Made by a program: the position numbers and the translations under genes. A stretch of DNA of 64,000 nt from Clostridia bacterium. Lineage in GTDB: Bacteria; Bacillota; Clostridia; Oscillospirales; CAG-272. Numbering within the stretch: the first letter of the stretch is position 1; the number at the start of each line of letters is the position of its first letter. The stretch spans positions 6,424 to 70,423 of the forward strand of contig JAFSSQ010000010.1 of NCBI GenBank assembly GCA_017450965.1. Reading direction: 5' to 3'. Under the pieces are notes generated by a model. That model had not been told where the DNA came from. It saw nothing but the letters and a program-made list of their open reading frames with translations, and did not search any database. Of the stretch, positions 12,990 to 50,278 are shown one piece after another.

Positions 12990-12993
12990 AAAT

Positions 12994-20698: not shown

Positions 20699-20727
20699 TT
20701 GCGTTTTCCGCCCGGCGGTGGTATACT
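20699..20727 (+). promoter_or_regulatory. SigA-type promoter for rbsK-SIS
   Basis: TTGCGT-N17-TATACT with extended -10 (TGn). Confidence 0.65.
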
Positions 20728-20766
20728 GGACGCAAAGAAAACGATAACCGAAAAGAGGGAAAGAAT

Positions 20767-24046: not shown

Positions 24047-24102
24047 AACGGCCTCACAAGGGGGCCGGGCGCCGCCCGGTCCCGGTTTTTTAGAGGAAGA
24101 AA

Positions 24103-24138
24103 GCGGGACCGTAGGCGCGAAAACGCCTGCGGTCCCGC
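24103..24138 (-). terminator. Internal stem-loop (partial terminator or stabiliser)
   Basis: gcgggaccg.aggcg/cgcct.cggtcccgc stem followed by tttctt on the minus strand, between two co-oriented genes. Confidence 0.55.
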
Positions 24139-24146
24139 GCGTTTTG

Positions 24147-25490
24147 TCAGTTTTCGTTTGCGGAGCGGCAGCGGAAGAAGAGGATCGCAGAGGCAACGCA
24201 CCCGCAGAGAGAAACGATCAGGAGGATAATGGCGTAGACGGGAACAGAGGAGGAGCCGGAGCCGCTGCTCGCGGGGGTCGTTTCCGCGGCGGTCTCGGCG
24301 GGCGCCTTGGTCTCGGCGGCCTGCGTTTCGGCGGGCTTGGTCTCGACGGTCGCCTGGGTCTCCGCCGCGTCCGTTTCACCGGGCGCTGCGGTCTCGGGGG
24401 CGGCCGTTTCGGGCGCTTCGGTCTCGACCGGGACCTTCGACGCGTCGTAGAGGACCTGGTCAAAGCCGGTCGCTTTCGTCAGGAGGTCGGCGTTGGGCGT
24501 CTCCCAGGCGGAGGCGTCCAGGGTAATCCCCTGCGAGAACTTTTCGTGCTCGCCGACGTCGCCGGTGACGATCATTCCCTTTTTCGCGAAGGTGCCGCCG
24601 TTGATCTTCAGGACGGCGGTCCCTTTGATGCTGCCGGAGCCGGCAACGGCGCCGGTGATTTCCGTCGTGTCGATGAAGTCGCCGCCGTTGATGACGACGG
24701 TGGCGTTGCCTTCGACCGTCCCGGTGCCGAGGACGCGGATCGACTTTTTGAAGGTACCGCCGTTGATGGTCAGCAGGACGTCGCCCTTGATCGTGCCGTC
24801 GCCCGCGGCAAAGACTTCCGCGTTGATCTCGCCGCCGTTGATGGTAACGGAAACGCTTCCTTCATTGACGCAGTTGAGCTTCTGGTTGTTCCGGGTGCCG
24901 CCGCGGATCATCTGCCAGGAGCCGCCGTTGATGGTCAGATCGCCGCCGTGCGCGGCGTCCTGCGCGGCGTCGTCGTTACGGCCGGCGGTGATGCCGATGT
25001 AGTTGGAGCTGCCGTCTTTGACGCACTCCACGTCCTCGCCGATCACGACCTTGTTGCCGTTGCAGCAGTAGAGCGAGGTGCTCTTCTGGACGCGGATCTT
25101 CAGATGGTCGAGCGTGTGCGCGCTGTTGAAGTAGAGCCACATATCGGAGAGCAGCGCGGCTTCCGCCGTCGTACGGTAGTCGGTCCCGTTCCAGACGCTG
25201 GTCAGCGTATAGGCGCCCGTGGCGGTTTCCGGCGTGCGGTAGTCGGAGCCGTCGGCGGAGCGGGAGAGGGTCAGCGGTCCGCAGATCACGATCATGCCGC
25301 CGTTCGGCAGCGCGGCGTAAGCGGCGTTCAGAGAGGCCTTCGCCTTCTCGGGGGAGGAGCCGTCGGAGAGGTCGCTTCCGTTATCGCTGATAAAGCAGAC
25401 GTCATCCGCCGCCGCCGCGGGCGCGGCGGCGAGGGGGACGAGGAGCGTCAGGACAAGGAGAAGAGAGAGAAGATAACAAATCTTTTTCAT
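24147..25490 (-). CDS. Secreted, C-terminally anchored surface protein with a probable beta-solenoid domain
   Basis: Signal peptide; FISDNGSDLSDGSSPEKA start motif; repeated (L/V)xINGG units; PETAAP linker; C-terminal TM plus basic tail; AAAGGAG RBS. Confidence 0.7.
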   Translation of the reverse strand: MKKICYLLSLLLVLTLLVPLAAAPAAAADDVCFISDNGSDLSDGSSPEKAKASLNAAYAALPNGGMIVICGPLTLSRSADGSDYRTPETATGAYTLTSVWNGTDYRTTAEAALLSDMWLYFNSAHTLDHLKIRVQKSTSLYCCNGNKVVIGEDVECVKDGSSNYIGITAGRNDDAAQDAAHGGDLTINGGSWQMIRGGTRNNQKLNCVNEGSVSVTINGGEINAEVFAAGDGTIKGDVLLTINGGTFKKSIRVLGTGTVEGNATVVINGGDFIDTTEITGAVAGSGSIKGTAVLKINGGTFAKKGMIVTGDVGEHEKFSQGITLDASAWETPNADLLTKATGFDQVLYDASKVPVETEAPETAAPETAAPGETDAAETQATVETKPAETQAAETKAPAETAAETTPASSGSGSSSVPVYAIILLIVSLCGCVASAILFFRCRSANEN

Positions 25491-29498: not shown

Positions 29499-29527
29499 TT
29501 GCGTTTACGCGCGAGCGGTGCTATTCT
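29499..29527 (+). promoter_or_regulatory. SigA-type promoter for the PfkB-ADH-FSA operon
   Basis: TTGCGT-N17-TATTCT with extended -10; closely resembles the promoter at 20699. Confidence 0.6.
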
Positions 29528-29561
29528 TTTGCTGAACAATCAGGCAAGGAGGCAGACCCTC

Positions 29562-30509
29562 ATGGCGACAGTTTACGGATTCGGTACGGCGGCGGTGGAT
29601 TTCCGCATCCGCACCGCGGATTTCGGCGATCTTTACAAGGACAAGCTCCTGGCGCAGACCATCGCGGAGATGGGCGGCGGCGCCGTGGCAAACTTCCTTT
29701 CCCAGGTCTCCCGTCTCGGCGGCAAGACCGCGTTTCTCGGCAAACTCGGCAGGGACGTGCCGGGGAAGAAGATCGTTTCTCTCCTGGAAGCGGAGGGGAT
29801 CGACTGCTCGCATATCCTGTATTCCGACACGCTCTGCTCTCCCTTCAACGTGGCCGCCTATTCCGGCGAGGGGATGCGCCGCCGCTGCGGCTTTCTGCTC
29901 CCGAACAGTCTTGCGTCGCTTGACGGGGAGGATATTTCCGCTCTGACGGAGGCGATCCGCCCGGAGGATCTGGTGATGGTCGAGATCGGAGAGATCCCGC
30001 CGGCCGCCGTGCTGTCCTTTATGCGGAAGGTGCGCGCGAAAGGGGCCAAACTCTTTATCGACGTGGACCTCGACCCCATCCGCCAGTGCGGCTTTACCCC
30101 AAAAGAGTTCGACGAGGTCTGCCGGCTCTCCGACGTCCTGATCCCGAACGTGGTCTCCCTCGGGGCGCTCTACCCCGATATGACGGCGCCCGCTTTGGCG
30201 GAAACGCTGTTTAAGATCTACGAAAAGCCCTGCGTGGTTTCCGCCGGACGGGACGGCGCCTTCTTCGCGGACCGGCCCGGTCCCGCGCAGAACGTCCCGG
30301 TCTACGAGGTCGAGGTGGTCGACACCGTCGGCGCGGGGGACGCGTTCCACGGCGGATTTGTTTACGGAATGCTTTCCGGCCTGCCGATCGGAGAGGCGGT
30401 GCGCTGCGGCTGCGTCTGCGGCGCGCTCAACTGCCGTACCTTCGGCGCGCGGGAAGGGATGGCGCGCAGGGAAGACCTGGACCGCGCCCTGAAAGGAGAA
30501 AACGGATGA
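29562..30509 (+). CDS. PfkB family carbohydrate kinase
   Basis: GGGAVAN, GKLGRD, PN, VDTVGAGDAFHGG, CGALNC...GAR. AGGAGG RBS. Confidence 0.9.
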   Translation: MATVYGFGTAAVDFRIRTADFGDLYKDKLLAQTIAEMGGGAVANFLSQVSRLGGKTAFLGKLGRDVPGKKIVSLLEAEGIDCSHILYSDTLCSPFNVAAYSGEGMRRRCGFLLPNSLASLDGEDISALTEAIRPEDLVMVEIGEIPPAAVLSFMRKVRAKGAKLFIDVDLDPIRQCGFTPKEFDEVCRLSDVLIPNVVSLGALYPDMTAPALAETLFKIYEKPCVVSAGRDGAFFADRPGPAQNVPVYEVEVVDTVGAGDAFHGGFVYGMLSGLPIGEAVRCGCVCGALNCRTFGAREGMARREDLDRALKGENG

Positions 30510-31717
30510 GTTCTTATTACAGCTTGCTCGAGACGGCGACCGACGCGCAAAAGCAGATCGCCGCGCTCCGGTTCCCCGGAGACGACGCCGCGGAAAAGGG
30601 GATCTTCCTCGGCTGCGGCGCCGCGCTGAAGGCCGGAGAGTTTCTGAAAAAGAGAGGAGCGTCCCGGGTGGCGGTCGTCGCCGACCGGATCCTCGAAAAG
30701 GTCGGGCTGCTCACGCCCGTCCTCGATTCTCTGAAGGAAAACGGCCTCGCGTACGACGTGTTTTCCGATATCGCGCCCGAGCCGCATACCGACGATCTGG
30801 CCGCGGCGGAGGCGTTTGCCCGCGCTCTTGCGGCGGACGCGGTGCTCGGCTTCGGCGGCGGCAGCTCGCTCGATACCGCAAAGGTCACGGCCTGCGCCCT
30901 GTCCGGCGCGGCGTCTTCTGTCGATCTGATCACCGGCAAAGCGCCGGTTTCCCGCGCCGTCCCGCTGATCCTGCTGCCCACGACCTCCGGTACGGGGAGC
31001 GAGGTCAGCCCTTACGCCGTGGCGAGCCACGAGGGCAAAAAGGTCTTTATTTCCTCGCCCGCCGCGATCGCGGACGCCGCTCTCGTCGACCCGCTGATGA
31101 CGGTCACGATGCCGCCGTCCGTTACCGCCTGCACCGGGCTTGACGCTCTCACGCACGCGGTGGAGGGCATGTGCGGCTGCCCCAACCCCTTCACGAAAGC
31201 GCTGGCCAAAGAGGCGACGGAGATCGTCTTCTCCTCTCTCCCGGCGGCGGTCGCGGAGCCGGAAAACCTCGACGCGCGTACGAAAATGTCCTACGCCTCG
31301 GTGCTCGGGATGATGGCGTACACGCAGGGAGGCGGGCTCTACGCGCACAGCGCCTCGTATATCATCACCCTGCAAAAGAACAAACCCCACGGGCTCGGCT
31401 GCGGACTGACGCTGCCGTACACGCTCGCGCTCAACCTCGCCGAGATCCGGGATCTGCTCACGGGCCTGATCCCCGCGATCAAAGCAAGCGGGCTCGCGGC
31501 GCCGGCAAGCGCCGATGAGGTGCCCGCCGCCTTCCTTGCGCTGGTGAAGAAGGTCGGCGTTCCCGCCACGCTGGCGGAGATCGGCTATACCGAAGCGGAC
31601 GTTCCCGCCTTCGGCCACGCCCTCTTTGCCGATTACTACCGCGCGAAAAATCCGAAAAAAGCCGACGAAGCCGACCTTGTCGCGCTGGCCGGCCGGATGC
31701 TGACCGGGACGATCTGA
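30506..31717 (+). CDS. Iron-containing alcohol dehydrogenase
   Basis: GGGSSLDTAK, PTTSGTGSEVS, DALTH, H...PHG metal ligands. Confidence 0.88.
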   Translation: MSSYYSLLETATDAQKQIAALRFPGDDAAEKGIFLGCGAALKAGEFLKKRGASRVAVVADRILEKVGLLTPVLDSLKENGLAYDVFSDIAPEPHTDDLAAAEAFARALAADAVLGFGGGSSLDTAKVTACALSGAASSVDLITGKAPVSRAVPLILLPTTSGTGSEVSPYAVASHEGKKVFISSPAAIADAALVDPLMTVTMPPSVTACTGLDALTHAVEGMCGCPNPFTKALAKEATEIVFSSLPAAVAEPENLDARTKMSYASVLGMMAYTQGGGLYAHSASYIITLQKNKPHGLGCGLTLPYTLALNLAEIRDLLTGLIPAIKASGLAAPASADEVPAAFLALVKKVGVPATLAEIGYTEADVPAFGHALFADYYRAKNPKKADEADLVALAGRMLTGTI

Positions 31718-31772: not shown

Positions 31773-32486
31773 ATGGAAATTTACGGTGCCGGTTCTCTCG
31801 AGGACGTGCGGATTTGCACGGAGCTCGGCGTCACGGGGATCCTCACGAATCCCCAGGGCTTTGAGCAGTATTATCAGGGCAAGATGACGCTCCGCGAGAT
31901 CACCGAAGCTCTCCTCAAAGCGAGCGACGACGGCCGCGACATCCCGGTCTTCATCCAGGTCCACGGACGTGACGCGGAGGAGATCGCCCACCGCGTGGAG
32001 GAGCTGCACGAGCTCAACCCCCGCCGCGTCTGCGGCAAGATCATCGCGGACGAAAAGGGCTTCCGCGCGATCAAAAAACTGCACGACGAAGGCATCCGCT
32101 GCGTCGCGACCTGCCTCTTCTCGCTCTCTCAGGCGGCGGTCGCCGCGATGGTCGGCGCTTACGCGATCTGCCCGTTCGTCTCCCGCGCGACCGCGATGGA
32201 GATGGATATGTTCGGCATCATCCGCAGCATCAAAGAGTGCTACCGTGACACGCCGAACGCGCCCCGCATCCTCGCCGCCAGCATCAAGAGCACCGCGGAC
32301 GTCAACGGCGCTTACGCCGCCGGTACGGACGCCGTCGCGCTCCGCTATCCGATGCTCCAGCAGATGATGGACCACGTCCTCACCACCCGCGCGGAAGCGC
32401 TCTTCGCCAAGAACTGGGCGAACGTCAAGGGCGAGGACATGAGCTACATGAAGGAAAAGATCAAACTCGAAGGCATCGCGGAATAA
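31773..32486 (+). CDS. Fructose-6-phosphate aldolase/transaldolase family protein, atypical active site
   Basis: TNP, FIQV, Schiff-base K (VCGKII), T-x-LFS, PFVSR, LAASIK. Confidence 0.8.
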   Translation: MEIYGAGSLEDVRICTELGVTGILTNPQGFEQYYQGKMTLREITEALLKASDDGRDIPVFIQVHGRDAEEIAHRVEELHELNPRRVCGKIIADEKGFRAIKKLHDEGIRCVATCLFSLSQAAVAAMVGAYAICPFVSRATAMEMDMFGIIRSIKECYRDTPNAPRILAASIKSTADVNGAYAAGTDAVALRYPMLQQMMDHVLTTRAEALFAKNWANVKGEDMSYMKEKIKLEGIAE

Positions 32487-33504: not shown

Positions 33505-33580
33505 GATTTCAGGCAAAAAATCCTCTGAAAAGGAAAGATTCCCTCCGGCCGCGGCGAAACCGCGCCCGGAGGGAGGGAAG

Positions 33581-33620
33581 AAGCCCCCGGCTGCCCGATG
33601 AACGAGCCGGGGGCTTTTGC
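33581..33620 (-). terminator. Hairpin ending the RM-island operon
   Basis: aagcccccggct/agccgggggctt stem; a second hairpin lies at 33539-33579. Confidence 0.6.
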
Positions 33621-33638
33621 TTTTATACGTTATAATTA

Positions 33639-34403
33639 CTAGGCTCTTTGCGCTGAGGCATAGAAATTTGCTTTTTCCGGGCATAAGGAAGCAACCTCAA
33701 TGATTATAAGCCGCGGGGTTTTTCCGAACGGGGGCGAAATATAGGGAGAAAACCACAAAACAAAATCAGCTCCACATTGTTTTATTTTTTTTAAAAAATC
33801 AATGTCGTAACATGGATGATGGAGTGCCTTGCTGGTTTTTCCGTTTTTGTTGATGACGCGAAAATGCTCATGTTCGGATATATCGCACACTACAAAAGCA
33901 AGGTGGTCACATTCCGGATGATTCTTTTTATAATATGATATTTTGTTCTTGTGGCTATCGATCACGCGGCAAAAATTCTGATAGTATTGGTCATAATCCG
34001 GTTCCATTTTGTCTTCATACTCGAACATTATGTTAGTAACAGCTGGGAATTGGTTTGTAATACTTGATTTTATAATCTCCTTTGCTGAAAAAGCGCCTTC
34101 TCTTGCAGGGGGATTATCCGGGCTTCCGCCGGGCTTTGTCTTTTCATAATCATTGACACTCATGAATTCAAGCATCAGTTTCTTTTCGGAATTGATGTAA
34201 TCGGGCGGATTGCTTGTGTTTTCAGAGTTGTCAAGCCAACCGTTCGATTCTTTCAAAGTTTTGAAACACTTTTTTTCAAGAGGGGATCCGGTAAGATAAA
34301 CGACTTGTTTTTTTGTTGTTTTAATTAAATGTTCAAAAGCATACTTTTCTTTTTGGAAAAGATCATGAACAAATTTCCCGTTTTGAATCATTCCAAAAGC
34401 CAT
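33639..34403 (-). CDS. Hypothetical protein, possible PD-(D/E)xK-like nuclease
   Basis: AT-rich 254-aa ORF 8 bp after res; PPDY...LMLEF motif. Confidence 0.55.
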   Translation of the reverse strand: MAFGMIQNGKFVHDLFQKEKYAFEHLIKTTKKQVVYLTGSPLEKKCFKTLKESNGWLDNSENTSNPPDYINSEKKLMLEFMSVNDYEKTKPGGSPDNPPAREGAFSAKEIIKSSITNQFPAVTNIMFEYEDKMEPDYDQYYQNFCRVIDSHKNKISYYKKNHPECDHLAFVVCDISEHEHFRVINKNGKTSKALHHPCYDIDFLKKIKQCGADFVLWFSPYISPPFGKTPRLIIIEVASLCPEKANFYASAQRA

Positions 34404-34411
34404 TTTTTCAT

Positions 34412-36565
34412 TTATCCGCCTGATTTAATGATCGGAGATTTCATAAACCTCTGAAACTGTTCCAGCGTCATATTCCTTTCGTTTCCGTTTGCCAACTGTG
34501 TGATATGCCATTCATCGCCCTTATAAACTGGAAGGTAGAACATATATTCAGTAAGAAGCGATGCTTGTTTATAACACCTTTTAAGTTCCTCAACTTTGAC
34601 CTTGTAGGCGGTGGAGTCAAACGCCGTCGGCGTTGCATTAGATATGTTAACGCTCTTTACTTCAAACAAATGAATTCTATCAAAAGAATCCTTCATAATG
34701 AAATCCGGATACGACGAGTGAACGCCGCCTAAGCAGTATTCAAACTTTATTTCGGAGTTTAATAAAAAGTTTTTACCCCATAAGTATTTTTGTGCGGCAT
34801 CTATCCTTTCCGGCTCGATTTCGCCAAAAAGATCAACTTGACCGGCTTTCGGATTTCGTTTACCCGTCAACACACGTTTTCCGACGCGCTTTCCGTCAAA
34901 CCCCTCTGTATCAGACGAAACGAGTTCTTTGATAATGCTTGCCCATTCGCGTTCAGCTTCACTATCAAACGAGAACTTATCCTTGCCGTCTCTTCTTCTC
35001 CATACCCAGTCTCCGATGTTTACATAATTGCGATTATCAACATAGGAAGAGGTAACGGGGAACGATACTTCGCGCGGTGTGCCGGCGTCATCGGTTGTTA
35101 ACTCCATACTCTCCGCATAATCGCAAGAGTAACGGTTACTTTCCGCCTCGATTTTCTCCGCGTGCTCGGCAACTCTCCACCATTTTTCGATATTGTTGCC
35201 AATGTATTCATAGCAGAGATCCCTTGCAGCGTTATCCAGCTTTTGAGTTGCCTTGTATAGATCAAAAATGTTTGAATAACTGGATACGTTCGGCTGGCTC
35301 GACAAAAACTCCTCAAGATCAAATCCGGTTTTTTTCGTGAGCGGCTTCAAGCGTGTAGTATGTATTCTGATTGCGTTTGTAATATCCTCCGGCTCGTCCC
35401 ACAAACGAACGCCGATGGTTTTTCTAACGTTATCATCGATGTTTGCCCATATCCAAGCCGTCATTGCAAGTTCTTGCGCTTGCGGAGAAAGATGCTCATA
35501 ATCAAGCAACCTCGGATTCCTTCTGACTCTGCCTATAACCTGCTCGCCGAGGATGGGACTTTGTACAGATCTGACTTGATATAACATACAAGCTCTTGGA
35601 ATATCCCATCCCTCGGATATAACCATCTTGAAAATGATAACATCAATGCCACTTGTGTTTTCTTTAGCATAGTCTTTCCATTTGGAAACAGGGAGGACAC
35701 GACACTTATCGGTAGTTTCGCTTTTTATGCCGTTTTCTTTTTTTTCGTCGACAATAAGCATCCAGTTCAAGTTTCGTCTTTTGAGTTCAGGGAAAACTAA
35801 ATTGTTTAACTCATCAACCCCTTGTTCGCCATTGGATATTTGAATAATAAGGCACGGATTAATATTAAGAAGGTCAAGGTAGTTTTGCTTAATTTCTTCA
35901 AACTTGTTGATCGCGTCGCCAAGATTATCTTTTTCTTCTCCCTCAACAATATGTTTGATCAATTTTGCGTTTTCCGCATCGGTTGATTTGATCTCTACAT
36001 CGGGGTACTGTCCTTTTGTGGGATCCGGTGTTGCAGAGAAGTTCAACACTTTTGCAAAATAAGTGTGAGATAGAATATCAAGATTGTTTGTTGCGCTGTG
36101 GCACTCGTCTTTGATAAGATATACTTCCTTGTGGTTTTTCCAAGAATAGCAGCCGGTTATTTCCTGAAAAAACGCATCCATTGCTGCCCCTTGCATCAAT
36201 CTGCTTCCTTCTCTGTAAAGGTCGCGAGGAAGAACATATACATTGTAATCCGTGGGAATATACAACCGTTCTTCTCCCGAAAGTTCGGATGAAATCAGAT
36301 ACGGATTCAGATGCGGGAATGCCCCTGTTTGTTGATACTCGCAAAACTTTGAATAGTTCTGTCCTGCAAGATCGCCTTTCGATAACGAGGATACCAAAAA
36401 TACTATATCATCATTTTGTTCGAGAACACGATTCATCAAATCAGCCATCATATATGTTTTGCCGCTGCCGGTAGGAGCTTTGAACGTGATCTCGTTTTTG
36501 TCACGGAGCTGTTCAACCAGTTCCAAAACAGCGTTGAGTTGAAGATCTTTCGCTTCCTGTAACAT
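34412..36565 (-). CDS. res: Type III restriction endonuclease subunit (SF2 helicase + PD-(D/E)xK)
   Basis: APTGSGKT, DECH, SAT, EGWD, QVIGRVRR, C-terminal YPDF...FEVK. TAATG coupling to mod. Confidence 0.9.
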   Translation of the reverse strand: MLQEAKDLQLNAVLELVEQLRDKNEITFKAPTGSGKTYMMADLMNRVLEQNDDIVFLVSSLSKGDLAGQNYSKFCEYQQTGAFPHLNPYLISSELSGEERLYIPTDYNVYVLPRDLYREGSRLMQGAAMDAFFQEITGCYSWKNHKEVYLIKDECHSATNNLDILSHTYFAKVLNFSATPDPTKGQYPDVEIKSTDAENAKLIKHIVEGEEKDNLGDAINKFEEIKQNYLDLLNINPCLIIQISNGEQGVDELNNLVFPELKRRNLNWMLIVDEKKENGIKSETTDKCRVLPVSKWKDYAKENTSGIDVIIFKMVISEGWDIPRACMLYQVRSVQSPILGEQVIGRVRRNPRLLDYEHLSPQAQELAMTAWIWANIDDNVRKTIGVRLWDEPEDITNAIRIHTTRLKPLTKKTGFDLEEFLSSQPNVSSYSNIFDLYKATQKLDNAARDLCYEYIGNNIEKWWRVAEHAEKIEAESNRYSCDYAESMELTTDDAGTPREVSFPVTSSYVDNRNYVNIGDWVWRRRDGKDKFSFDSEAEREWASIIKELVSSDTEGFDGKRVGKRVLTGKRNPKAGQVDLFGEIEPERIDAAQKYLWGKNFLLNSEIKFEYCLGGVHSSYPDFIMKDSFDRIHLFEVKSVNISNATPTAFDSTAYKVKVEELKRCYKQASLLTEYMFYLPVYKGDEWHITQLANGNERNMTLEQFQRFMKSPIIKSGG

Positions 36566-38205
36566 TACTTGTCTTCCTCCAGACGCTTTTTCCAATCAGC
36601 GTCACTTTCAAGAACCTTTTGAGTTCCTTCAAAGTTCCGACAAATCCACTCGATCTTTTCTTTCAACGTGCTGAATTTCTCTTGACCGTACAACGTTTCA
36701 TCAATCACGTCAAAAGCCGTCTGCCCCGGAACACTTTCAAAATTAGCAACCTCCGCAATCTCATACACGTCAAGACTGCCGCCTAAAGGTTCATTGTCAT
36801 TAGCCCATTTGAAGTCGGTTGATCCGTCATAACAACTGCCAGTCATTGTTCTTTTTAACCTTTTTGAAGTAACATCATAGGCAATGCCGTGTGGATTTAC
36901 AGGTGTTTTTTCGTTTATTTGGCAGAGAACAAATCGTCTCTTTCCGTCATCTTGTTTATTCAATTCAAGAACCGCTTGACCTGTAGTTCCGCTTCCTGCA
37001 AAAAAGTCTAAAACCGTTGCTTCCTTTTTCCAATAAGTAGTCGATTTTAATAAGAGCTGGACAAGACCGACAGGCTTTGGATTGTCAAATGTATCGTCCA
37101 AAATCTCTTCTAATTGTGCGGTGCCATCTTCGTTTGTTTCACAGTTATAAAATACTTGAGATAGCATATTCCCCATTTTTTTGATTTCGCCGCCATCCTT
37201 TACAAGGTTGGGTCTAAATGGCACTTGGCTAATCGTAATAATGCTTCCTTTTGAGATCTCGTCATCAAGCGTTTCTTGACTATATCTCCATTCGCCTTCA
37301 AGCACCATCTCATTTATGTTTGTTCCATCCTCAATTACAACATCATTTAGTAGTCTTGTAATGATATTCCCGTTTGACATATCTTGTGCCTTGACTGTGC
37401 CATCAGGCATATTGAACCTAACGCGATTGGGTGGGAAATGCAATTTCCCCATAGTGTTTCCTGCGTTATTGAAAGGGTATTTTTTTCCAACAGTTGTTGT
37501 TTCAACAGAAAACGGAAAAGTTTCTTGATAATTAGCCACATAGCAAAGAATGTACTCGAACATTGTCCCAAAGTTCTTTGACAAGAATGACGGTTTTTTC
37601 TTTTTTTGCCAAATAATTGTTCCCGAGTAGTTTCTCTCTTGAAACACTTCATCCATTAGGCATTTTACATACGCATAATTACGATCATCAATACTACAAA
37701 ATATCACACCTGTTTCAGATAACAACATCTTCGCAAGTGTCAATCTGGAATAAAGCATGGACAATAAATTATCACGTGTCAATGCATTCTCATAATTTGT
37801 CTGAGCAAATTCGCCCATGCTGTCTTTCCCATACGGTGGATCAATATAAATAACATCAATTTTGCCCTTGTACTGAATAAGCAAATTGAGCAAACCGTCG
37901 TAATTATCGCCAATAATCAATTTGTTCGGCGACTTATCCGACCCATCTGAAAAACTCAATTCTTCGTTTTTCTTGAAATACTTTATAGCGGGCTCGGTTT
38001 TTTCAAGGCGTTTATCAAAATGGAATCCCGTCCTCTTATAAGTTGTACCGAGTTCGGCAATAAAAATTGCTTCCGTCAGCGTGTCGGCGTTTTGAATAAG
38101 CTTTTTAAGAAGATCAGCGTTGCTCTTTTCGATAATACCGTCTTCCATACGGCGATCCAGTTCGTTTATCAGTTCCTGCCGGCTTTGTTCAAAAACTGTT
38201 TTCAT
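36565..38205 (-). CDS. mod: Type III DNA methyltransferase subunit
   Basis: IYIDPPY and VLDFFAGSGTTG in beta-class order. ATG 38205 with GGAG RBS. Confidence 0.92.
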   Translation of the reverse strand: MKTVFEQSRQELINELDRRMEDGIIEKSNADLLKKLIQNADTLTEAIFIAELGTTYKRTGFHFDKRLEKTEPAIKYFKKNEELSFSDGSDKSPNKLIIGDNYDGLLNLLIQYKGKIDVIYIDPPYGKDSMGEFAQTNYENALTRDNLLSMLYSRLTLAKMLLSETGVIFCSIDDRNYAYVKCLMDEVFQERNYSGTIIWQKKKKPSFLSKNFGTMFEYILCYVANYQETFPFSVETTTVGKKYPFNNAGNTMGKLHFPPNRVRFNMPDGTVKAQDMSNGNIITRLLNDVVIEDGTNINEMVLEGEWRYSQETLDDEISKGSIITISQVPFRPNLVKDGGEIKKMGNMLSQVFYNCETNEDGTAQLEEILDDTFDNPKPVGLVQLLLKSTTYWKKEATVLDFFAGSGTTGQAVLELNKQDDGKRRFVLCQINEKTPVNPHGIAYDVTSKRLKRTMTGSCYDGSTDFKWANDNEPLGGSLDVYEIAEVANFESVPGQTAFDVIDETLYGQEKFSTLKEKIEWICRNFEGTQKVLESDADWKKRLEEDK

Positions 38206-38305
38206 TTTTATTATCTCCAATTCTTACTATTCGTTCAGTATTTGAGTATTTCAACGGATAGAACAAGTTTCATTTTGCAGAGAGCGGCGAGGACAACGCG
38301 GTAAA

Positions 38306-38695
38306 TCAAGAATTACTTTCGTGTACACTATCAATTGAATGAAAATAGCCAGAAAAAAAGACGATTGGGAAAAACAGAAAGCCGCAATAGACTTCAACAA
38401 TCATACATTTTGTTTTTTGGTACCAAGAAATGTGAATGTTCTCATTATCTCTTTTTATAGGCAAAGGAGGCAATTTGTTGCTGACCTTTTGGCACAGAAT
38501 GACGAAAGTGGTCTCTTCATTATCGATTTCTTTCACAAACTCAATTCTAATAGCATCAGTACTTTTTTCTTCTTTTATTTCGATCCTGCGAATGTTTTTA
38601 ATTACAATAGCCGCATCCCCCAATTCAATGGCTTTGCCTCGCTTTCTATCAGTTGGATCATTTTGCCATTCTTTACAGATGTTTTCAGCATTCAT
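38306..38695 (-). CDS. Hypothetical protein (AT-rich)
   Basis: AAAGGAG RBS and a TTGCTT-N17-TATAAT promoter upstream. No recognisable family. Confidence 0.55.
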   Translation of the reverse strand: MNAENICKEWQNDPTDRKRGKAIELGDAAIVIKNIRRIEIKEEKSTDAIRIEFVKEIDNEETTFVILCQKVSNKLPPLPIKRDNENIHISWYQKTKCMIVEVYCGFLFFPIVFFSGYFHSIDSVHESNS

Positions 38696-38766
38696 ATCAG
38701 TATCTCCTTTTTGATTTTTGTTACAGCGGGTTCAACCCCGAAGTTTTTAACAGTATTCTTTTTTGT

Positions 38767-38795
38767 ATTATACCATAAAACGTTCGAAAAAGCAA
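38767..38795 (-). promoter_or_regulatory. Promoter at the head of the RM island
   Basis: TTGCTT-N17-TATAAT with extended -10. Confidence 0.65.
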
Positions 38796-38841
38796 GCGTG
38801 ACCTTCCGCATAGGCGCGGCGCGGGACGGCTTTGCCGGCCG

Positions 38842-38877
38842 AAAAAATCTCCCTCCCGCCGGATCGGCGGGAGGGAG
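38842..38877 (-). terminator. Intrinsic terminator after the GRE activase
   Basis: 12-bp stem ctccctcccgcc/ggcgggagggag followed by atttttt on the minus strand. Confidence 0.8.
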
Positions 38878-38885
38878 GTTGGTTG

Positions 38886-39794
38886 TTACCGGAACCGTAC
38901 CGGTTTGTCGGTTTGCTTTTTGAGCGCCTCGAGGAAGGCGAGGTTTTCCTCGCGGGAGGCGAGGGGGGTATCGGCGAGGGCGTAGGGCCTGCCGAGCTCG
39001 CGGTATTTGCCGACGCCGAGCCGGTGATAGGGGAGCAGCTCCACGGCGGCGACGGGGAGGGGGGCGAGGAGGGCCGCCAGGTCCGCTGCAAACGCCCCGG
39101 TCATATTGACGCCGGGGATGAGGGGGACGCGGACGACCGTCTCGGTGAGCTTTGCCGCCGTCCGGAGATTTTCGAGGATCGGCTTGTTGCTTTGTCCGGT
39201 ATAACGGATATGTTCGGCCTCGTCGAGAAGCTTCACGTCAAAGTAGACGCGGTCGACCATGCCGGCGATCCGGGCAAAAACGGCGGGATCCGCGAAGCCG
39301 CAGGTTTCGATCATCACGTTGATCTTTTCCCGTTTGAGGCGTTCGATCAGCGCGAGAACGAAGTCCGCCTGGGCGGTTACCTCGCCGCCGGAGAGGGTGA
39401 CCCCGCCGCGAGAGTCCTCGTAGTAGTCCCGGTCCTTCAGTATGAGCTCGGTCAGCTCGTCGACGGTGTAGGGCTTGCCCGCCTCCCGGATCCGGTCAAA
39501 CGGGCATAGCGTTTCGCACCTTCCGCAAAAAACGCACTTGTCCGGGTCGGCCGACACGCCCTGTTCCGAAAGGGAGAGCGCGCCCTGCGGGCAGGCGGAA
39601 AGGCATTTTCGGCAGTCGGCGCACGCGCCGGCGGGCTTGATCATCAGCTCGGAGGAAAAACTCTGCGACTCGGGGTTGCAGCACCACGCGCAACGCATCG
39701 GACAACCCTTGAAAAAGACGGTCGTCCGGATGCCGTCCCCGTCGAACAGGCAGAAACGCTGAACGTCGAAGATCAGAGCAGTCGTTTTCACCAT
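38886..39794 (-). CDS. Glycyl-radical enzyme activating enzyme (radical SAM, with 2x[4Fe-4S] insert)
   Basis: DGDGIRTTVFFKGCPMRCAWCCNPES, CxxCxxCxxxCP twice, GVTLSGGE, LLPYH. Confidence 0.95.
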   Translation of the reverse strand: MVKTTALIFDVQRFCLFDGDGIRTTVFFKGCPMRCAWCCNPESQSFSSELMIKPAGACADCRKCLSACPQGALSLSEQGVSADPDKCVFCGRCETLCPFDRIREAGKPYTVDELTELILKDRDYYEDSRGGVTLSGGEVTAQADFVLALIERLKREKINVMIETCGFADPAVFARIAGMVDRVYFDVKLLDEAEHIRYTGQSNKPILENLRTAAKLTETVVRVPLIPGVNMTGAFAADLAALLAPLPVAAVELLPYHRLGVGKYRELGRPYALADTPLASREENLAFLEALKKQTDKPVRFR

Positions 39795-42130
39795 TTTTTA
39801 CCGCCCGATTCCTGGCAGGTCCTGCGGATGATGTCGTCCTGAAGCGCCCGCTCGATCGTGGTGAAGAGAACGGAGAAGCCCGCCACCCGGACCATCAGCG
39901 TGGGGTATTTTTCCGGGTGGATCTGCGCGTCGCGCAGGACCGCCTCGTCGAAGACGTTGAACTGGATATGCTGTCCGCCGTGCTTGAAGTAGGTCCGGAC
40001 GAGGTCGGCGATCTTCTCCTTGTTTTCGTCGGTGAGGAAGTTGGGGGTCAGCCGGAGATTGAGAAGACTGGAGCCGAGGACCTTCGTCGGGGTGAGTTTG
40101 ACCACCGAGTTGAGCAGCGCCGTCGCGCCGAGCTGATCCCTGCCGTGTCCCGCGGAAACGCCGCCGTCGGCGAGGTTGTCGAACGCCTTTCTCCCGTCCG
40201 GCGTCGCGCCCGTGTACTTGGCAAAGAGGACGTTCGAGGCGATGGTATAAAGCGCCAGGCGGTACTTGCCGCCGCGGGGAGAGGTGTACTTTTCCACCTC
40301 GCCGTAGAGGAAGTCGACAAGGTCCCGGCCGATCAGATCGACCGAATCGTCGTCGTTGCCGTACTTCGGCGATTTGTTTTTCAGCAGCGAGCGGAGATCC
40401 TCGCGGCCCTCAAAGTTGGAGAGGAGCGCGTCCTTCAGCTCGGAGAAGGAGACCGTTTTTTCGTCGTAGACGAACTTTTTCATCGCGCGGAGACTGTCGA
40501 TCACGTTGGGAACGGCAACCATCTGCAGGGTGGTCGAGTTGTACTTGGCGCCGCCCTCGAGATTTGTTTTGCCCGCGTCGAGACAGCCGCGGATAAAGGC
40601 GGAGACGAACGGCGTGGGGCAGAGCGAGCCGTGCAGCTCGTCGAGGACGTCGTCGCCCTTGATATTGAGCATCAGATAGTGGGCGAGCTGCGTCTTGAAG
40701 GCGGCGTAAAACGCCTCCCACGTCATCGTTTCCGCGTCTCCGGTGCGGAAGGGGAACTGCCGCTTGGCGACGGGATCGTACCCGTCGAAGAGCGTCAGCT
40801 CCAGCACCTTCGCCACGTTGAGGAAGCCCCCGGTGAGCCAGGGCTCCACGTTCCCGTTCCCCGTCGTCTCGGAGCAGCCGACGATGGTGTAGTCGTTCGC
40901 TTCCTTTTCGTCGTAGCCCATCGTCCGCATATTGGCGATGAGCGTTTTGTCGTTGAACATGGCGGGCATCCCGCCGCCGATGCGGACGGTGTCGAGAGCC
41001 GCGAGCAAAAACCGCTTGCTCGATTTTTCCTCGTTCCAGCGGATGGAGAGGGAGGGCTGGGGCAGAGCGATCTGCCGCGTCGCCGCGAGACAGAGGTAGG
41101 AGAGCTCGTTTTCCGCCGGGTTTCCGTCTTCGTCGATCCCGCCGACGATCAGGTTCTGGAACATGGGGTATCCGCCGAAGGCGATCGTGGAGACCTTATC
41201 CCGGATCTTGTTCAGCTCAAAGAACTTCAGCCACAAGAAGTGCAGCGTTTCCTCCAGCTCCTCGACCGGCACCCCTCTCTCGAGGTCGTGCTTGAAGTAG
41301 GGGAGCATATACTGGTCGAAGCGCCCGGGGGACATACTGTGGCCGCTCGCCTCGAGATGGAGCGCGAGATGCACGAGCCAGAAGGACTGCACCGCCTCGG
41401 CAAACGTTTCAGCGGGGCGGGCGGGGACTTTATGGAGGATGCGGGCGATCTCGGAGAGCTCCGCTTTCCTTTCTTCGTTTTCCTCCGTTTCCGCTTTTTC
41501 CCGCGCCAGCGCGGCGTAGCGCTCCGCGTAGGCGCAGATCGCCCGGAGAGAGATCTCGACCGCGTCGTAGTAGGCGGCGTGCTCTTCGGTGCGTTTTTCT
41601 TTTACTTCCTCCAGGATCCCGAGGATCCCCCGTTCGAGGAAGGAGCGGTAGTCGATCACGAGGTGCCCGATCCCGGAGCGCATCGCCGTGAGGATATACA
41701 CCAGCGAGGAGGCCGCGTCCTTCTGCTCGTCGGAGAGACGGAGGAAGGCGCGGTAGGCGATCGTTTTATCCTGCCAGTAGGGATAGATCGCGCGCAGCCG
41801 GGCTTTCGTCTCCTCGGAGATGAGGAAACGGTCGGTATTCCGGTCCGCGAGTCCGTCCATCTCGTTGATCACGAAGGTCATATCGTATTCGGGGTAGACG
41901 GGGCATCCCCTCGCCTTGCCGCAGAGCGAGCCGACGACCCGCTCAAGATCCCCGATGTGGATATCGGTCTTCCCGAGGATCTCGCGGAAGGCGACAGCGC
42001 GCCGAAGGACAGAGGGCATGCCCTCTGTCCTTTGGTAGCTTTCGGTGATGATCTCCGCCCGGTCCGCAAAGACCTCGGGCGGGAAGGAGCAGATAAAGTC
42101 CTTCAGTTTCCGGATCCGTTCTGTCATCAT
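39788..42130 (-). CDS. Glycyl radical enzyme, glycerol/diol-dehydratase-like clade, substrate unknown
   Basis: Gly loop RVAGFS, single-Cys loop GCSE, GIGH, ESGHS-like EASGHS, FGGYPMFQN, GATPDGR. Confidence 0.93.
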   Translation of the reverse strand: MMTERIRKLKDFICSFPPEVFADRAEIITESYQRTEGMPSVLRRAVAFREILGKTDIHIGDLERVVGSLCGKARGCPVYPEYDMTFVINEMDGLADRNTDRFLISEETKARLRAIYPYWQDKTIAYRAFLRLSDEQKDAASSLVYILTAMRSGIGHLVIDYRSFLERGILGILEEVKEKRTEEHAAYYDAVEISLRAICAYAERYAALAREKAETEENEERKAELSEIARILHKVPARPAETFAEAVQSFWLVHLALHLEASGHSMSPGRFDQYMLPYFKHDLERGVPVEELEETLHFLWLKFFELNKIRDKVSTIAFGGYPMFQNLIVGGIDEDGNPAENELSYLCLAATRQIALPQPSLSIRWNEEKSSKRFLLAALDTVRIGGGMPAMFNDKTLIANMRTMGYDEKEANDYTIVGCSETTGNGNVEPWLTGGFLNVAKVLELTLFDGYDPVAKRQFPFRTGDAETMTWEAFYAAFKTQLAHYLMLNIKGDDVLDELHGSLCPTPFVSAFIRGCLDAGKTNLEGGAKYNSTTLQMVAVPNVIDSLRAMKKFVYDEKTVSFSELKDALLSNFEGREDLRSLLKNKSPKYGNDDDSVDLIGRDLVDFLYGEVEKYTSPRGGKYRLALYTIASNVLFAKYTGATPDGRKAFDNLADGGVSAGHGRDQLGATALLNSVVKLTPTKVLGSSLLNLRLTPNFLTDENKEKIADLVRTYFKHGGQHIQFNVFDEAVLRDAQIHPEKYPTLMVRVAGFSVLFTTIERALQDDIIRRTCQESGGKKW

Positions 42131-42160: not shown

Positions 42161-43177
42161 TCAGGGGTTCTGCGCGGCTTTTTTCTTCTGCGCGAGCTCG
42201 TAGGCGACCTGGATGCAGATCTGCTCCTGCCCCTCGGTGCAGCCGCGGAGGCCGATCTCCTTGATGATGTCGCGGGTGTCGACGCCGAACTTCGCCGCCG
42301 CGCGCCGCGCAAAGAGGATAAAGCTGGAGTAGACGCCGTAGCCGAGCATGATCTGGTCGCTCGTCAGCTCCATCGGGCGCGGCATCAGCGGTTTGAGGTA
42401 CTCGTCGCCCACGTCCATCGCCTTGTACATATCCACATTGGTGCGGTAGCCCTTGCGGTCCAGCGCGAGCAGCAGCGGCTCGACGGGGCAGTTGCCCGCG
42501 CCGGCGCCGAAGCCCTTGATGCAGGTGTCCACGTAGGTCGCGCCCGCGTCGATCGCCGCGAGGGTGTTGGCGACGGCAAGCTGCATATTGTTGTGCGCGT
42601 GGAAGCCGAGCGGAACGTCGATGTGCTTCTGGAGGGTGAAGATGCGCTCGTAGACTTCCTCCGGCAGGGCGGATCCGCCGCCGTCGAGGAGGTAGATCAC
42701 CTCGGCGCCGAATTTCTCGGAGATCTGGGCGTAGCGGAGCGTCTCCTCCACCGAGAGGAACTTGGCGAGCGGGAGGACCGCCCACGGGATCAGGCCCATC
42801 TCTTTCGCCATGCCGATATGCTGACGCGCGATGTCGCACTCGGACATCTGGGTGGCGAACCGGGCGACGGTGATGCCGTTTTCCTTCGCCATCTTCAGAT
42901 CGTACCGCGTCCCGATACCGGGGAGGGTGATGATCGCGAGCTTCGCGTTTTTCACCTTCGGGCGGACGGCTTTCATATACTCCTCGTCCGTCGCGGCGCC
43001 GAATCCGTACTGGATGGAGGAACCGCCGACGCCGTTTCCGTGGCCGAATTCGATGAAGTCGACGCCGGTGCTGTCGATCTGTTCCGCGAGCATCGCCATC
43101 TGCTCCGTCGTGTACTTGTGGCTCATCGCGTGCGAGCCGTCGCGGAGCGTGGAATCGAGAATGTTGATCCGTTTCAT
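42161..43177 (-). CDS. mhpE: 4-hydroxy-2-oxovalerate aldolase-like (DmpG/MhpE, DRE-TIM)
   Basis: LRDGSH, HGNGVGGSS, GFHAHNN, GFGAGAGN, GVYSSF. ATG 43177 with GGAGG RBS. Confidence 0.9.
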   Translation of the reverse strand: MKRINILDSTLRDGSHAMSHKYTTEQMAMLAEQIDSTGVDFIEFGHGNGVGGSSIQYGFGAATDEEYMKAVRPKVKNAKLAIITLPGIGTRYDLKMAKENGITVARFATQMSECDIARQHIGMAKEMGLIPWAVLPLAKFLSVEETLRYAQISEKFGAEVIYLLDGGGSALPEEVYERIFTLQKHIDVPLGFHAHNNMQLAVANTLAAIDAGATYVDTCIKGFGAGAGNCPVEPLLLALDRKGYRTNVDMYKAMDVGDEYLKPLMPRPMELTSDQIMLGYGVYSSFILFARRAAAKFGVDTRDIIKEIGLRGCTEGQEQICIQVAYELAQKKKAAQNP

Positions 43178-44124: not shown

Positions 44125-45009
44125 TCAGGGGGTCTGTTTGCCGCGCAGCTCCCGGAGGTAAGCGGAGGGACTCTGCCCGCACTGCATCTTGAAGAAACGG
44201 CTGAAGGAATAGATATCGGGGAACCCGAGCAGATCTCCCACCCGGGAGGGGGAAAGTCCCTCCTCCAGCTTCTTTTTGGCGTATTCGGAGCGCAGGGAAT
44301 TGCAGTATTTGATCAGCGAAACGCCGTAGGTGGAGCGGAACTTTTTGACCAGATAGAACTTGTTGTAGTGGAACTGCTCCGAGAGGTCGTCCAGATTGAA
44401 GCGGGAGTTGAGGAAGTTTGCGTCGATAAAACTCTTGACGCTGCTGATGAAGTCCGGCTCCTCGTGCGCGAAGCTGCGCAGCTCGGAGATGTTGTCGCGG
44501 ATGATCATGCGCAGAAGCGCCGTCATCTGCTCCTTGCAGATCAGCTGATAGAGGACCGGCTTGTTGTGATAGGTGCGGATCACGTCCTCCACCAGAGAGA
44601 GGAAGACCTTGCGGTTGCTGACGTTGAGGAAGGGGTATTCCAGCTCCCCGCCGAAAAAGTCCGGCTGGACGCAGCGCCGCTCCTCCTCGGTGAAATCGGC
44701 GAGGTTTTTGTAAGAGACGTAGGAAAGCTCGCTGGAGGGCGTGTAGGTCACGTCGAAATGGATATGCGCGTGGAGCGGAGAGGAGTCCGGCGGAACGACG
44801 ATCGTGTGGTTGACGCCGGGCGGGATCAGGATGATATCGCCCTGCTTCGTTTCGTAGGTCTTTTCGTTCATCAAAAGAGTAAAGCCGCTGGAGATGAACC
44901 AGATCAGCTCGTAGTCAAAGAGCGCCCGCTCCTTGAAGACAAGTCCGGGACGGAGGGTCGAGGTGAGCGCGGCCCGGACGTAAGGGGAAACGGCGTTGAC
45001 GTTCAGCAT
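44125..45009 (-). CDS. AraC/XylS family transcriptional regulator
   Basis: N-terminal cupin (YELIW, GDIILIPPG); C-terminal double HTH ending GFPDIYSFSRFFKMQCGQSPSAY. Confidence 0.93.
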   Translation of the reverse strand: MLNVNAVSPYVRAALTSTLRPGLVFKERALFDYELIWFISSGFTLLMNEKTYETKQGDIILIPPGVNHTIVVPPDSSPLHAHIHFDVTYTPSSELSYVSYKNLADFTEEERRCVQPDFFGGELEYPFLNVSNRKVFLSLVEDVIRTYHNKPVLYQLICKEQMTALLRMIIRDNISELRSFAHEEPDFISSVKSFIDANFLNSRFNLDDLSEQFHYNKFYLVKKFRSTYGVSLIKYCNSLRSEYAKKKLEEGLSPSRVGDLLGFPDIYSFSRFFKMQCGQSPSAYLRELRGKQTP

Positions 45010-50205: not shown

Positions 50206-50278
50206 TTTTGGTTTTTCTCCTTGGGTTATTCGCAGAAAGAGCGGATTTTCCCTCTTCATCACTATCTTACCCTATTTC

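Follow-up and report, generated by a model that had tools for sequence, protein, structure and literature searches.

Which compound is turned over by a glycyl radical enzyme (GRE) that keeps the catalytic residues of the B12-independent diol dehydratases, differs from them in its pocket motifs and is encoded beside an aldolase and an aldehyde dehydrogenase? The question is raised by a 64,000-nucleotide stretch of contig JAFSSQ010000010.1 (positions 6,424 to 70,423) from a Clostridia bacterium (assembly GCA_017450965.1; Oscillospirales, CAG-272), hereafter called the window, in whose coordinates the features are given. The most informative feature of this GRE is an obligate genomic partnership with the proteins DmpF and DmpG. 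Our tentative answer is that it acts as a 1,2-eliminase, likely a dehydratase, of an imported anionic polyhydroxy compound, most plausibly a C4-C6 aldonic acid. The core of the locus is composed of the following elements.

38849..38877, minus strand: intrinsic-terminator-like hairpin, with a 13-bp stem containing 11 G-C pairs, then a T run
38886..39794, minus strand: GRE-activating radical SAM enzyme of 302 aa, whose start overlaps the GRE stop by 7 nt
39788..42130, minus strand: GRE (clade A) of 780 aa, with the signature GC[ST]E / EPWLTGGF / ALY[ST]I / RVAGFS
42161..43177, minus strand: DmpG-type 4-hydroxy-2-oxoacid aldolase, 338 aa from the ATG at MKRINIL, with PF00682 and PF07836
43180..44061, minus strand: DmpF-type CoA-acylating aldehyde dehydrogenase of 293 aa, with PF09290, whose stop lies 2 nt before the DmpG start
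44125..45009, minus strand: AraC-family regulator (HTH_18, HTH_AraC, AraC_binding), directly upstream of DmpF

The four structural genes form a tight operon, with intergenic distances ranging from the 7-nt overlap to 30 nt, and the hairpin directly 3' of the activase gene is its predicted end. The activase scores 297 bits with TIGR02494 (cut-off 174) and carries the CPMRCAWC cluster motif together with two ferredoxin-like cluster motifs, its Pfam domains being Radical_SAM, Fer4_12 and Fer4_7. An 86%-identical AraC regulator occupies the equivalent position in L014, another locus of the same GRE clade.

Translation of the GRE gene yields 780 stop-free codons, i.e. an intact reading frame. The protein is a member of the GRE superfamily, with a PFL-like barrel (PF02901, residues 2-636, E 1.7e-195) and a C-terminal RVxG glycine radical domain (PF01228 Gly_radical, residues 656-756, E 3.1e-27). 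Its closest solved structure is the B12-independent glycerol dehydratase of C. butyricum (GD, 1r8w; 611.6 bits, E 1.8e-182), followed by the propanediol dehydratase of R. inulinivorans (PD, 5i2a; 582.5 bits) and by 9rco, a 'glycyl radical protein' without specific name (564.9 bits). In the same PDB search, the isomerases PflD, YbiW and HplG reached 500, 471 and 387 bits.

An initial annotation had listed the GIGH, GHS, GGYP, Cys-x-Glu and LY sites as retained, and alignment with GD combined with a position map found each of them in place: H156 corresponds to GD H164, H264/S265 to H281/S282, Y321 to Y336, C419/E421 to C433/E435 and Y628 to Y640, while the radical glycine G751 corresponds to G763. 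Y321 is conserved in every relative examined. The Cys-x-Glu motif, as opposed to the Cys-Cys of the PFL type, is invariant in the clade to which the GRE belongs, and H156 is invariant in 75 of 75 clade sequences. Cys-x-Glu is regarded as the eliminase hallmark (PMC13450708). Judged by this motif and by the His expected to serve as general acid, the GRE is of the eliminase type, as the initial annotation had proposed for a 1,2-elimination.

The same alignment contains all the differences to GD that had been pointed out. The Cys loop GCVEPQ of GD reads GCSETT in the GRE (V434 to S); WHDSAF reads WLTGGF (H446 to L432, D447 to T433, S448 to G434, A449 to G435), by which the Asp is lost and two Gly are gained; LYPSS reads LYTIA (P641 to T, S642 to I630, S643 to A); and RVAGYS reads RVAGFS. 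They are fixed or nearly so in about 75 clade sequences. GD Y339 (in PMY), a residue contacting glycerol, is F324 in the GRE and is Phe in PD too. F324 and I630 correspond to PD F344 and V696, presumably the two positions that separate PD from GD. The numbering was cross-checked on F318, whose mapped position is that of GD Phe333 and PD Phe338 as named in the study of the trans-4-hydroxy-L-proline dehydratase HypD (6vxe; PMC7077986).

These differences are shared by a whole group of proteins. Among the best 120 matches from a search of 5.8 billion proteins, the closest relatives are 79-83% identical to the GRE and the signature persists in an unbroken series down to about 47% identity; below about 46%, canonical GD/PD-type sequences (GCVEPQ, EGWHDAAF, LYPVSANV, RVAGYS) and a third type are found. 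Column statistics on 75 signature-bearing and 30 GD/PD-type sequences identified 25 positions that are fixed within each group yet different between them, and these sit in or beside the segments bearing known catalytic residues. They comprise, from GD to the clade, N156 to T148, H446 to L432, D447 to T433, A to G434 and G435, G638 to A626, I694 to K683, N697 to G686 and Y764 to F752, to which a one-residue insertion, G656, is added. The W-H-D motif with H446/D447 is invariant in GD, PD, 9rco and the 30 related sequences, whereas all 75 clade members have W-L-T-G-G. Two cationic residues are gained in the clade, R/K151 in the loop that precedes the catalytic His (67 of the 75 members have Arg or Lys there, GD/PD have Phe or Tyr) and K/R683, and the Cys loop carries Thr or Ser at T/S420, T422 and T423 (GC[ST]E-T-T). 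As judged from these columns, the differences in the pocket motifs are not due to chance.

When GD, PD and 9rco were added to a FastTree phylogeny, the signature group formed one clade of 76 sequences (support 0.83) and the three reference proteins fell in a separate 33-member clade (support 1.0); their identity to the GRE is 40-41%. The GRE thus does not cluster with a known glycerol or propanediol dehydratase. In NCBIfam, it passes only the broad subfamily TIGR01774 (720.6 bits, cut-off 678.2) and stays far below the equivalog cut-offs of HypD (563 vs 1100), HpsG (492 vs 1000), HpfG (486 vs 1000), CutC (458 vs 1050), IAD (408 vs 1100) and HPAD (309 vs 1150). None of the characterised eliminases and isomerases covered by a June 2026 review has the signature or the gene context of the clade, and the review states that whole GRE clades remain without experimental validation (PMC13450708). 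In the full-text literature, including GRE papers published since 2024 but with subscription-only articles outside its coverage, neither the clade nor a GRE-DmpFG pairing was found described. Because the catalytic residues are retained, the GRE is placed by its sequence as a new subfamily inside the existing eliminase class, for which a reaction is proposed below; the 'new GRE class' of the initial annotation was an overstatement. A third, uncharacterised GRE group, 39-45% identical to the GRE, is marked by EVGCVEPQ, EGYYP[SG]GF and GLQSISAHA. Its genes (L025, L031, L036, L042, L046, L050, L069, L070, L072 and L077) adjoin those of tripartite ATP-independent periplasmic (TRAP) transporters without DmpFG, for example in Oscillibacter, and thus represent another GRE linked to anion transport.

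The clade loci were collected from metagenomes and from one genome per GTDB species, both searched with the window proteins. All 22 clade loci that include flanking DNA (L001-L008, L010-L015 and L017-L024; left out were L009, which begins at the GRE, and L016, a 3.8-kb contig) have the genes of DmpF and DmpG beside those of the GRE and its activase. Of the 64 loci whose GRE is less than 46% identical, none has the pair. All-against-all clustering of the neighbourhood open reading frames (ORFs) gave no further universal gene hinting at the substrate. The clade loci span at least five phyla, with Bacillota, Desulfobacterota, Nitrospirota, Verrucomicrobiota (Victivallales) and one unassigned metagenome contig. 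The hosts include rumen and gut Clostridia, Candidatus Limiplasma, Feifaniaceae, Victivallales, Desulfovibrio, Desulfosporosinus, Desulfitobacterium, Syntrophobacter and a Nitrospiraceae metagenome-assembled genome (MAG). With a clade member in at least 16 of 185,579 species-representative genomes, the GRE-DmpFG system is rare yet phylogenetically widespread. DNA near-identical to that of the window comes mainly from bovine and sheep gut metagenomes.

This gene context departs from that of the closest solved relatives. GD (C. butyricum DhaB1, 1r8w/1r9d) and PD (5i2a) resemble the clade in fold, length, sequence (about 41% identity), catalytic residues and an adjacent dedicated activase with extra Fe-S motifs. 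Unlike them, the clade has L/T followed by Gly-Gly in place of H446/D447, GC[ST]ETT in place of GCVEPQ, and the gained R/K151, K/R683 and G656. GD and PD are accompanied by microcompartment shell genes, a PduP-type dehydrogenase or a dha-type 1,3-propanediol module, whereas the clade is accompanied by DmpFG and anion transporters, an iron-containing alcohol dehydrogenase (Fe-ADH) being present in extended loci and not in core ones. As the initial annotation had noted, microcompartment genes are missing: no shell gene was found in the annotated part of the window (about 9.8 kb to the end) or in seven clade loci with Pfam-annotated gene lists. Its view that the GRE is not a GD/PD orthologue agrees with the separate clade, the identity of about 41%, the lack of H446/D447 and this lack of a microcompartment context.

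Both partner proteins are recognised at equivalog level, DmpG by TIGR03217 (388 bits, cut-off 286) and DmpF by TIGR03215 (409 bits, cut-off 282). The motifs R17/D18/H21, H200/H202 and Y291 are retained in DmpG aligned to 1nvm_A, as is the active-site Cys motif of DmpF aligned to 7z3s and 1nvm_B. In these scores, in the dehydrogenase-then-aldolase gene order and in the conservation of metal and catalytic motifs, communication domain and active-site Cys, the pair is similar to the complexes of aromatic and steroid meta-cleavage (DmpG/DmpF, BphI/BphJ, MhpE/MhpF, HsaF/HsaG). It differs from them in that hydratase or dioxygenase context is absent, the hosts are strict anaerobes and the proteins belong to a distinct subfamily.

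That subfamily was delineated by comparing the GRE-linked proteins with DmpG 1nvm and the Thermus enzyme 4lrs, and by a database search with the window DmpG. About 90 relatives at 53% identity or more (88 in the column statistics) have HGNG, DG[GS]G and C-T-E-G-Q-E, whereas 30 database sequences at 53% or less together with the two PDB references have HGDG, DSAG and V-G-G-Q-E-D. T-E-G-Q-E is found in 88 of 88 sequences of the GRE-linked type and the canonical Gly-Gly is invariant in the 32 others. Ten changes are fixed: D53N, L88I, H115Q, S171G, R228K, L230F, H297F, V322T, G323E and I329C. By sequence, then, the GRE-linked DmpGs are a sharply bounded subfamily. G323 is presumably the equivalent of BphI Gly-322, which, according to BphI mutagenesis, lines the aldehyde tunnel towards the dehydrogenase. 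The subfamily has gained one Glu and no cationic residue. The lack of a cationic gain argues against an anionic aldehyde, and the polar changes argue against plain acetaldehyde, so that a neutral polar aldehyde is favoured. Tartronate semialdehyde and glyoxylate, anionic aldehydes considered in view of the CdaR regulators found at some loci, were disfavoured on the same grounds.

Members of the DmpG subfamily lacking a GRE were also sought, in the hope that a non-radical dehydratase whose specificity is known would be found with them. Two divergent members were examined, from Sediminispirochaeta smaragdinae (L089) and from a metagenome contig (L090); both lie beside a GRE of another clade and are each accompanied by DmpF and a TRAP system.

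L089 15316-17658: second-clade GRE, Sediminispirochaeta smaragdinae
L090 6686-9046: second-clade GRE, metagenome contig

The second-clade GRE is 38% identical to that of the window and has EVGCVEPQ, QGFY-AGY and GFQSIS, with Gln at the equivalent of Tyr640. A DUF1537-type kinase (11211-12527), of the family of four-carbon acid-sugar kinases, and an Fe-ADH are also encoded in L090. A second GRE clade with the same DmpFG subfamily implies that two GRE clades feed one dedicated aldolase-dehydrogenase subfamily.

Transporters accompany the core in at least 10 loci and, where they adjoin the operon, are all of organic-anion types, belonging to the TRAP systems or to the major facilitator superfamily (MFS). 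At least three unrelated types of TRAP binding protein are found at clade loci, so that different loci use non-orthologous ones. Their PDB matches were remote (155 bits at most) and spread over sialic-acid and other binders, and gave no specific assignment. Binding proteins of these and of the sister system are encoded at L003 4045-5127, L007 6635-7717, L008 4813-5976, L024 4058-5359 and L089 11096-12100. MFS proteins of the aromatic-acid/H+ symporter type are present in the Desulfosporosinus and Nitrospiraceae MAG loci, and the MFS protein of Desulfovibrio sp. 3_1_syn3 reaches 314.6 bits with the model of the L-lactate transporter SfMCT, whose cut-off is 320 bits. In the latter locus (L004), a three-subunit complex resembling gluconate-2-dehydrogenase flavoprotein and cytochrome c is encoded at 4315-8103, immediately upstream of the MFS and GRE genes on the same strand; a periplasmic step making the acid substrate is possible. 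The regulators of the clade loci are AraC, IclR, GntR-FCD and CdaR ('sugar diacid') proteins and sigma-54 two-component systems, of which IclR, GntR-FCD and CdaR are families usual for sugar acids and support a sugar-acid reading.

Beyond the core, a second operon recurs. In the window it is formed by three genes convergent with the GRE operon.

29499..30509, plus strand: PfkB-family kinase, accessory operon
30506..31717, plus strand: Fe-ADH, accessory operon
31773..32486, plus strand: divergent protein of the fructose-6-phosphate aldolase (FSA)/transaldolase family, accessory operon

Eight loci, all of fermentative lineages (L003, L005/L019, L006, L009, L014, L017, L023 and the window), combine the GRE with the PfkB kinase and the FSA-like aldolase, and most of them also have the Fe-ADH, whereas the loci of sulfate- and sulfite-respiring lineages contain core genes only. 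A kinase and an Fe-ADH thus recur with both DmpFG-linked GRE clades. The nearest NCBIfam models of the Fe-ADH are small-aldehyde reductases of the lactaldehyde, sulfoacetaldehyde and 4-hydroxybutyrate types, all below cut-off. Six PDB relatives of the PfkB protein were found at E <= 1e-15; the two best are uncharacterised, and three of the six (YdjH, 2-keto-3-deoxygluconate kinase and sulfofructose kinase) are kinases of anionic sugars. Naming a substrate from the FSA-like and PfkB proteins by PDB and NCBIfam comparison was abandoned, both being too divergent. In L003, L005 and L017, the kinase and FSA genes share an operon with TRAP genes and with a conserved protein of 122-130 aa, located between the TRAP genes and the FSA-like gene (L003 6999-7367, L005 6894-7286, L017 about 7740-8100). 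This small protein matches no Pfam or NCBIfam family and contains the motifs YxGYxWYLIPxWRV, QPWESxY, THHVHYA and TEERPDE.

From the observed catalytic residues, clade, partnership, transporter types and operon, we infer a reaction, its regiochemistry, an order of steps and a kind of substrate. The substrate is most likely anionic because the transporters are of organic-anion types and two cationic residues were gained in pocket segments. R/K151, K/R683 and a Cys loop rich in hydroxyl groups are in keeping with a carboxylate ligand, by analogy with HypD, a GRE eliminase whose substrate bears a carboxylate. In HypD, R156, four residues before the equivalent His, stabilises the substrate carboxylate, and the polar uncharged carboxylate ligands Y450 and T645 (PMC7077986) map by offset estimate to segments remodelled here, T433-G435 and 629-632. 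A cationic residue before the catalytic His is thus common to both; in contrast to HypD, the GRE scores only about half of the HypD cut-off and no pyrroline-5-carboxylate reductase is found in the clade context.

In the proposed mechanism, the radical SAM activase would install the radical on G751, and a C419 thiyl radical would take a hydrogen from a carbinol carbon. E421 would deprotonate the hydroxyl of that carbon and H156 would protonate the neighbouring hydroxyl, which would be lost as water; return of the hydrogen would yield a 2-keto-3-deoxy (4-hydroxy-2-oxo) acid. This acid would be split by the DmpG-type aldolase into pyruvate and a small neutral, probably hydroxylated aldehyde, which the DmpF-type dehydrogenase would oxidise to an acyl-CoA. 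For the product to be a DmpG substrate, the hydrogen would have to be taken from C2 and the hydroxyl lost from C3 of a 2,3,4-trihydroxy acid, that is an aldonate. Candidate substrates are tetronates (threonate, erythronate), pentonates, 5- or 6-deoxy-aldonates and hexonates. Among the substrates named in the initial annotation, a pentonate fits best, whereas a neutral pentitol or a deoxy-pentose is made unlikely by the anion transporters and cationic residues. Where present, the Fe-ADH could be a reductive outlet for the aldehyde in fermenters, and its distribution would be explained by respiring hosts needing no such outlet; the PfkB kinase (or the DUF1537 kinase in the related locus) and the FSA-like aldolase could form a phosphorylative side branch.

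The proposed route is similar to the non-phosphorylative Entner-Doudoroff and Dahms routes in leading from an aldonate via a 2-keto-3-deoxy-aldonate to pyruvate and an aldehyde, with an optional kinase branch. It would differ from them in using a radical dehydratase in place of IlvD/Edd or enolase-superfamily enzymes and in capturing the aldehyde as an acyl-CoA. Put in its full form, the hypothesis is that the GRE alpha/beta-dehydrates an aldonate or a close anionic polyol and thereby founds an oxygen-sensitive GRE-DmpG-DmpF 'radical Entner-Doudoroff/Dahms' pathway, the second GRE clade sharing the aldolase and perhaps handling a stereoisomer. This wider version is a possibility that we hold with some reserve.

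Several points weigh against the proposed aldonate route as such. Non-radical dehydratases of the IlvD/Edd, enolase-superfamily and UxaA types already dehydrate aldonates and are common, which leaves the need for a radical enzyme unexplained and is the main weakness of the proposal. F324 and I630, at the two pocket positions by which GD and PD differ, are hydrophobic and would be equally suited to an alkyl-ended substrate. Alternatively, binding of the carboxylate could be distal, as it is in HypD, and a terminal diol could be attacked in the manner of GD, in which case no DmpG substrate would arise directly. In the window, the GRE locus has no adjacent transporter. The residue-to-structure mapping is by sequence alignment and partly by residue numbering from the literature, and the roles given to the FSA-like protein and the PfkB kinase, like any role for the 122-130-aa protein, are guesses.

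The distal position of the carboxylate is the basis of another reading, in which the GRE is a terminal-diol dehydratase with the regiochemistry of GD and PD. Its substrate would be an omega,(omega-1)-dihydroxy carboxylate or else a 2-keto-3-deoxy-pentonate in its furanose hemiketal form, which is an oxygen analogue of hydroxyproline. DmpF would oxidise the aldehyde product directly and DmpG would act on another intermediate or work in the condensing direction. GD and PD are indeed the closest solved relatives, T433-G435 and 629-632 coincide with the HypD carboxylate site, R/K151 is near HypD R156, and F324 and I630 are PD-like. Nevertheless, we consider it unlikely, given that it leaves no clear job for a DmpG present in all 22 loci with conserved catalytic motifs, and that, according to the established DmpG/BphI chemistry, its predicted products (2,5-dioxopentanoate or malate semialdehyde, for example) are not among the substrates of DmpG. 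A glycerol or 1,2-propanediol dehydratase of the ordinary B12-independent kind, with a drifted pocket, would account for GD and PD as best PDB matches and for the TIGR01774 score above cut-off, but is barely credible: H446/D447 are invariant in the 30 GD/PD-type sequences and replaced by L/T in all clade members, the tree separates the two groups, and neither shell genes, nor a PduP-type dehydrogenase replacing DmpF/DmpG, nor a 1,3-propanediol dehydrogenase in core loci was seen, anion transporters being found instead. It has also been considered that the dehydrated compound is ethylene glycol. PfkB and FSA would yield glyceraldehyde-3-phosphate and glycolaldehyde by cleavage of a pentose phosphate. 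After reduction of the glycolaldehyde by the Fe-ADH, the resulting ethylene glycol would be dehydrated by the GRE to acetaldehyde, for conversion to acetyl-CoA by DmpF. Such a route would be redox-neutral and ATP-yielding and would use the canonical DmpF substrate, the Fe-ADH is nearest to lactaldehyde/glycolaldehyde reductase models, and DUF4185 (GH183-like) genes flank the locus in this genome. It is nonetheless highly unlikely, since a smaller neutral diol would call for the reverse of the enlargement and the cationic gains seen in the pocket, since core loci have anion transporters and no alcohol dehydrogenase, kinase or FSA, and since the always retained DmpG would be superfluous.

Two further readings depart from dehydration. 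A GRE of the YbiW/PflD/HplG isomerase type would open the cyclic ether of an anhydro- or ring-form acid sugar with an alkoxide as leaving group and deliver a keto-deoxy acid to the aldolases. This larger leaving group would be accommodated in the space freed where H446/D447 are lost and Gly-Gly is gained; the lost GD residue presumably lies near the leaving-group side of the pocket. The combination of a GRE, an FSA-family aldolase and an alcohol dehydrogenase follows the logic of E. coli YbiW/PflD anhydroglycolysis (FSA, GldA; PMC13450708), and FSA-like and Fe-ADH genes recur here; in those pathways, a keto-deoxy compound that can be cleaved is made from an unusual sugar derivative, a likeness also proposed for the present locus. 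Unlike the clade loci, they have no DmpFG, the obligate partner here, and employ a phosphotransferase system where a kinase or TRAP system is found here. PflD, YbiW and HplG score lower than GD (the first two at 471-500 bits), core loci lack the FSA, kinase and alcohol dehydrogenase, and we know of no candidate anhydro-acid in ruminant gut or sediment habitats; we judge this reading very unlikely. As a C-S or C-N lyase, the GRE would act on a hydroxy-acid that is sulfonated or aminated. This would be in keeping with the core-only loci of Desulfovibrio, Desulfosporosinus, Desulfitobacterium, Syntrophobacter and Nitrospiraceae, many hosts being sulfite-reducing, and R/K151 is one residue from the position of the sulfonate-binding IslA R189 and HpsG R183 relative to the His/Gln site. 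We give this very little credence. The general-acid His is kept at a position where C-S lyases have Gln. HpsG and HpfG score less than half of their cut-offs of 1000 bits, and sulfite would be useless to the fermentative gut hosts. Moreover, C-S lyases hold the sulfonate by an Arg-Gln-Arg triad (PMC13450708), and no second Arg is present at the IslA R678 position, which is A/S631 in the clade. Dehydration of an aldonate or a similar sugar acid remains the reading that we prefer.

Between the two operons of the window lies an element that is context and stands outside the pathway.

33557..38882, strand not assigned: type III restriction-modification island, with Res at 34412-36595, Mod at 36565-38220 and a 254-aa ORF without family

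This island of 5.3 kb, with a GC content of about 0.40, sits between the terminator of the GRE operon and a Fic gene followed by the accessory operon. L014, collinear with the window at 91% protein identity, lacks exactly window 33557-38882, and L009, a 95% relative, carries the island at 85-88% nucleotide identity; it is taken as an insertion because it is absent from the former and present in the latter. With the island removed, the GRE operon would end about 1.1 kb from the convergent accessory operon, with the Fic gene between them.

Three DUF4185 (GH183-like) genes flank both operons, all on the minus strand (22403-24196, 45037-47718 and 47764-50262). Two of the three immediately precede the AraC gene and share its orientation, the nearer one being 27 nt away. 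Their placement suggests that the pathway may be fed in this organism by a glycan-derived product. Beside the DUF4185 cluster, a second PfkB-family kinase (20677-21741, plus strand, 212 bits) and a metallophosphoesterase (18985-20547, minus strand) are encoded, and in the rumen relatives L010-L013, which are 80% identical, the gene after the GRE operon is a metallophosphoesterase-GDSL fusion. Window 1-17000, with a lower GC content of 0.44-0.48, contains glycosyltransferases and a CDP-glycerol glycerophosphotransferase and looks like a cluster for the biosynthesis of a cell-wall polymer. Two further GRE genes are present in the host genome (2.07 Mb, about 98% complete), on contig C64 at 6759-7067 and 15172-15483, with open frames of 748 and 746 aa.

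Finding functions for uncharacterised GREs is a subject of active research, and every assignment made to date has brought to light a new way in which gut or environmental microbes use a nutrient anaerobically. The hypothesis put forward for the present clade is testable, as the system offers a three-gene core with predictable downstream chemistry (pyruvate and an acyl-CoA) and dedicated binding proteins. Cultured hosts exist in Desulfosporosinus lacus DSM 15449, Desulfosporosinus sp. I2 and Desulfovibrio sp. 3_1_syn3, and in Sediminispirochaeta smaragdinae for the sister system. If the hypothesis is true, GRE eliminases would acquire a new class of substrates, and DmpFG-type complexes would gain a new physiological role beyond the aerobic breakdown of aromatics. 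Carbon flow in the ruminant gut and in sulfidogenic communities would likewise gain a new route, an oxygen-sensitive radical counterpart of the non-phosphorylative Entner-Doudoroff and Dahms routes.

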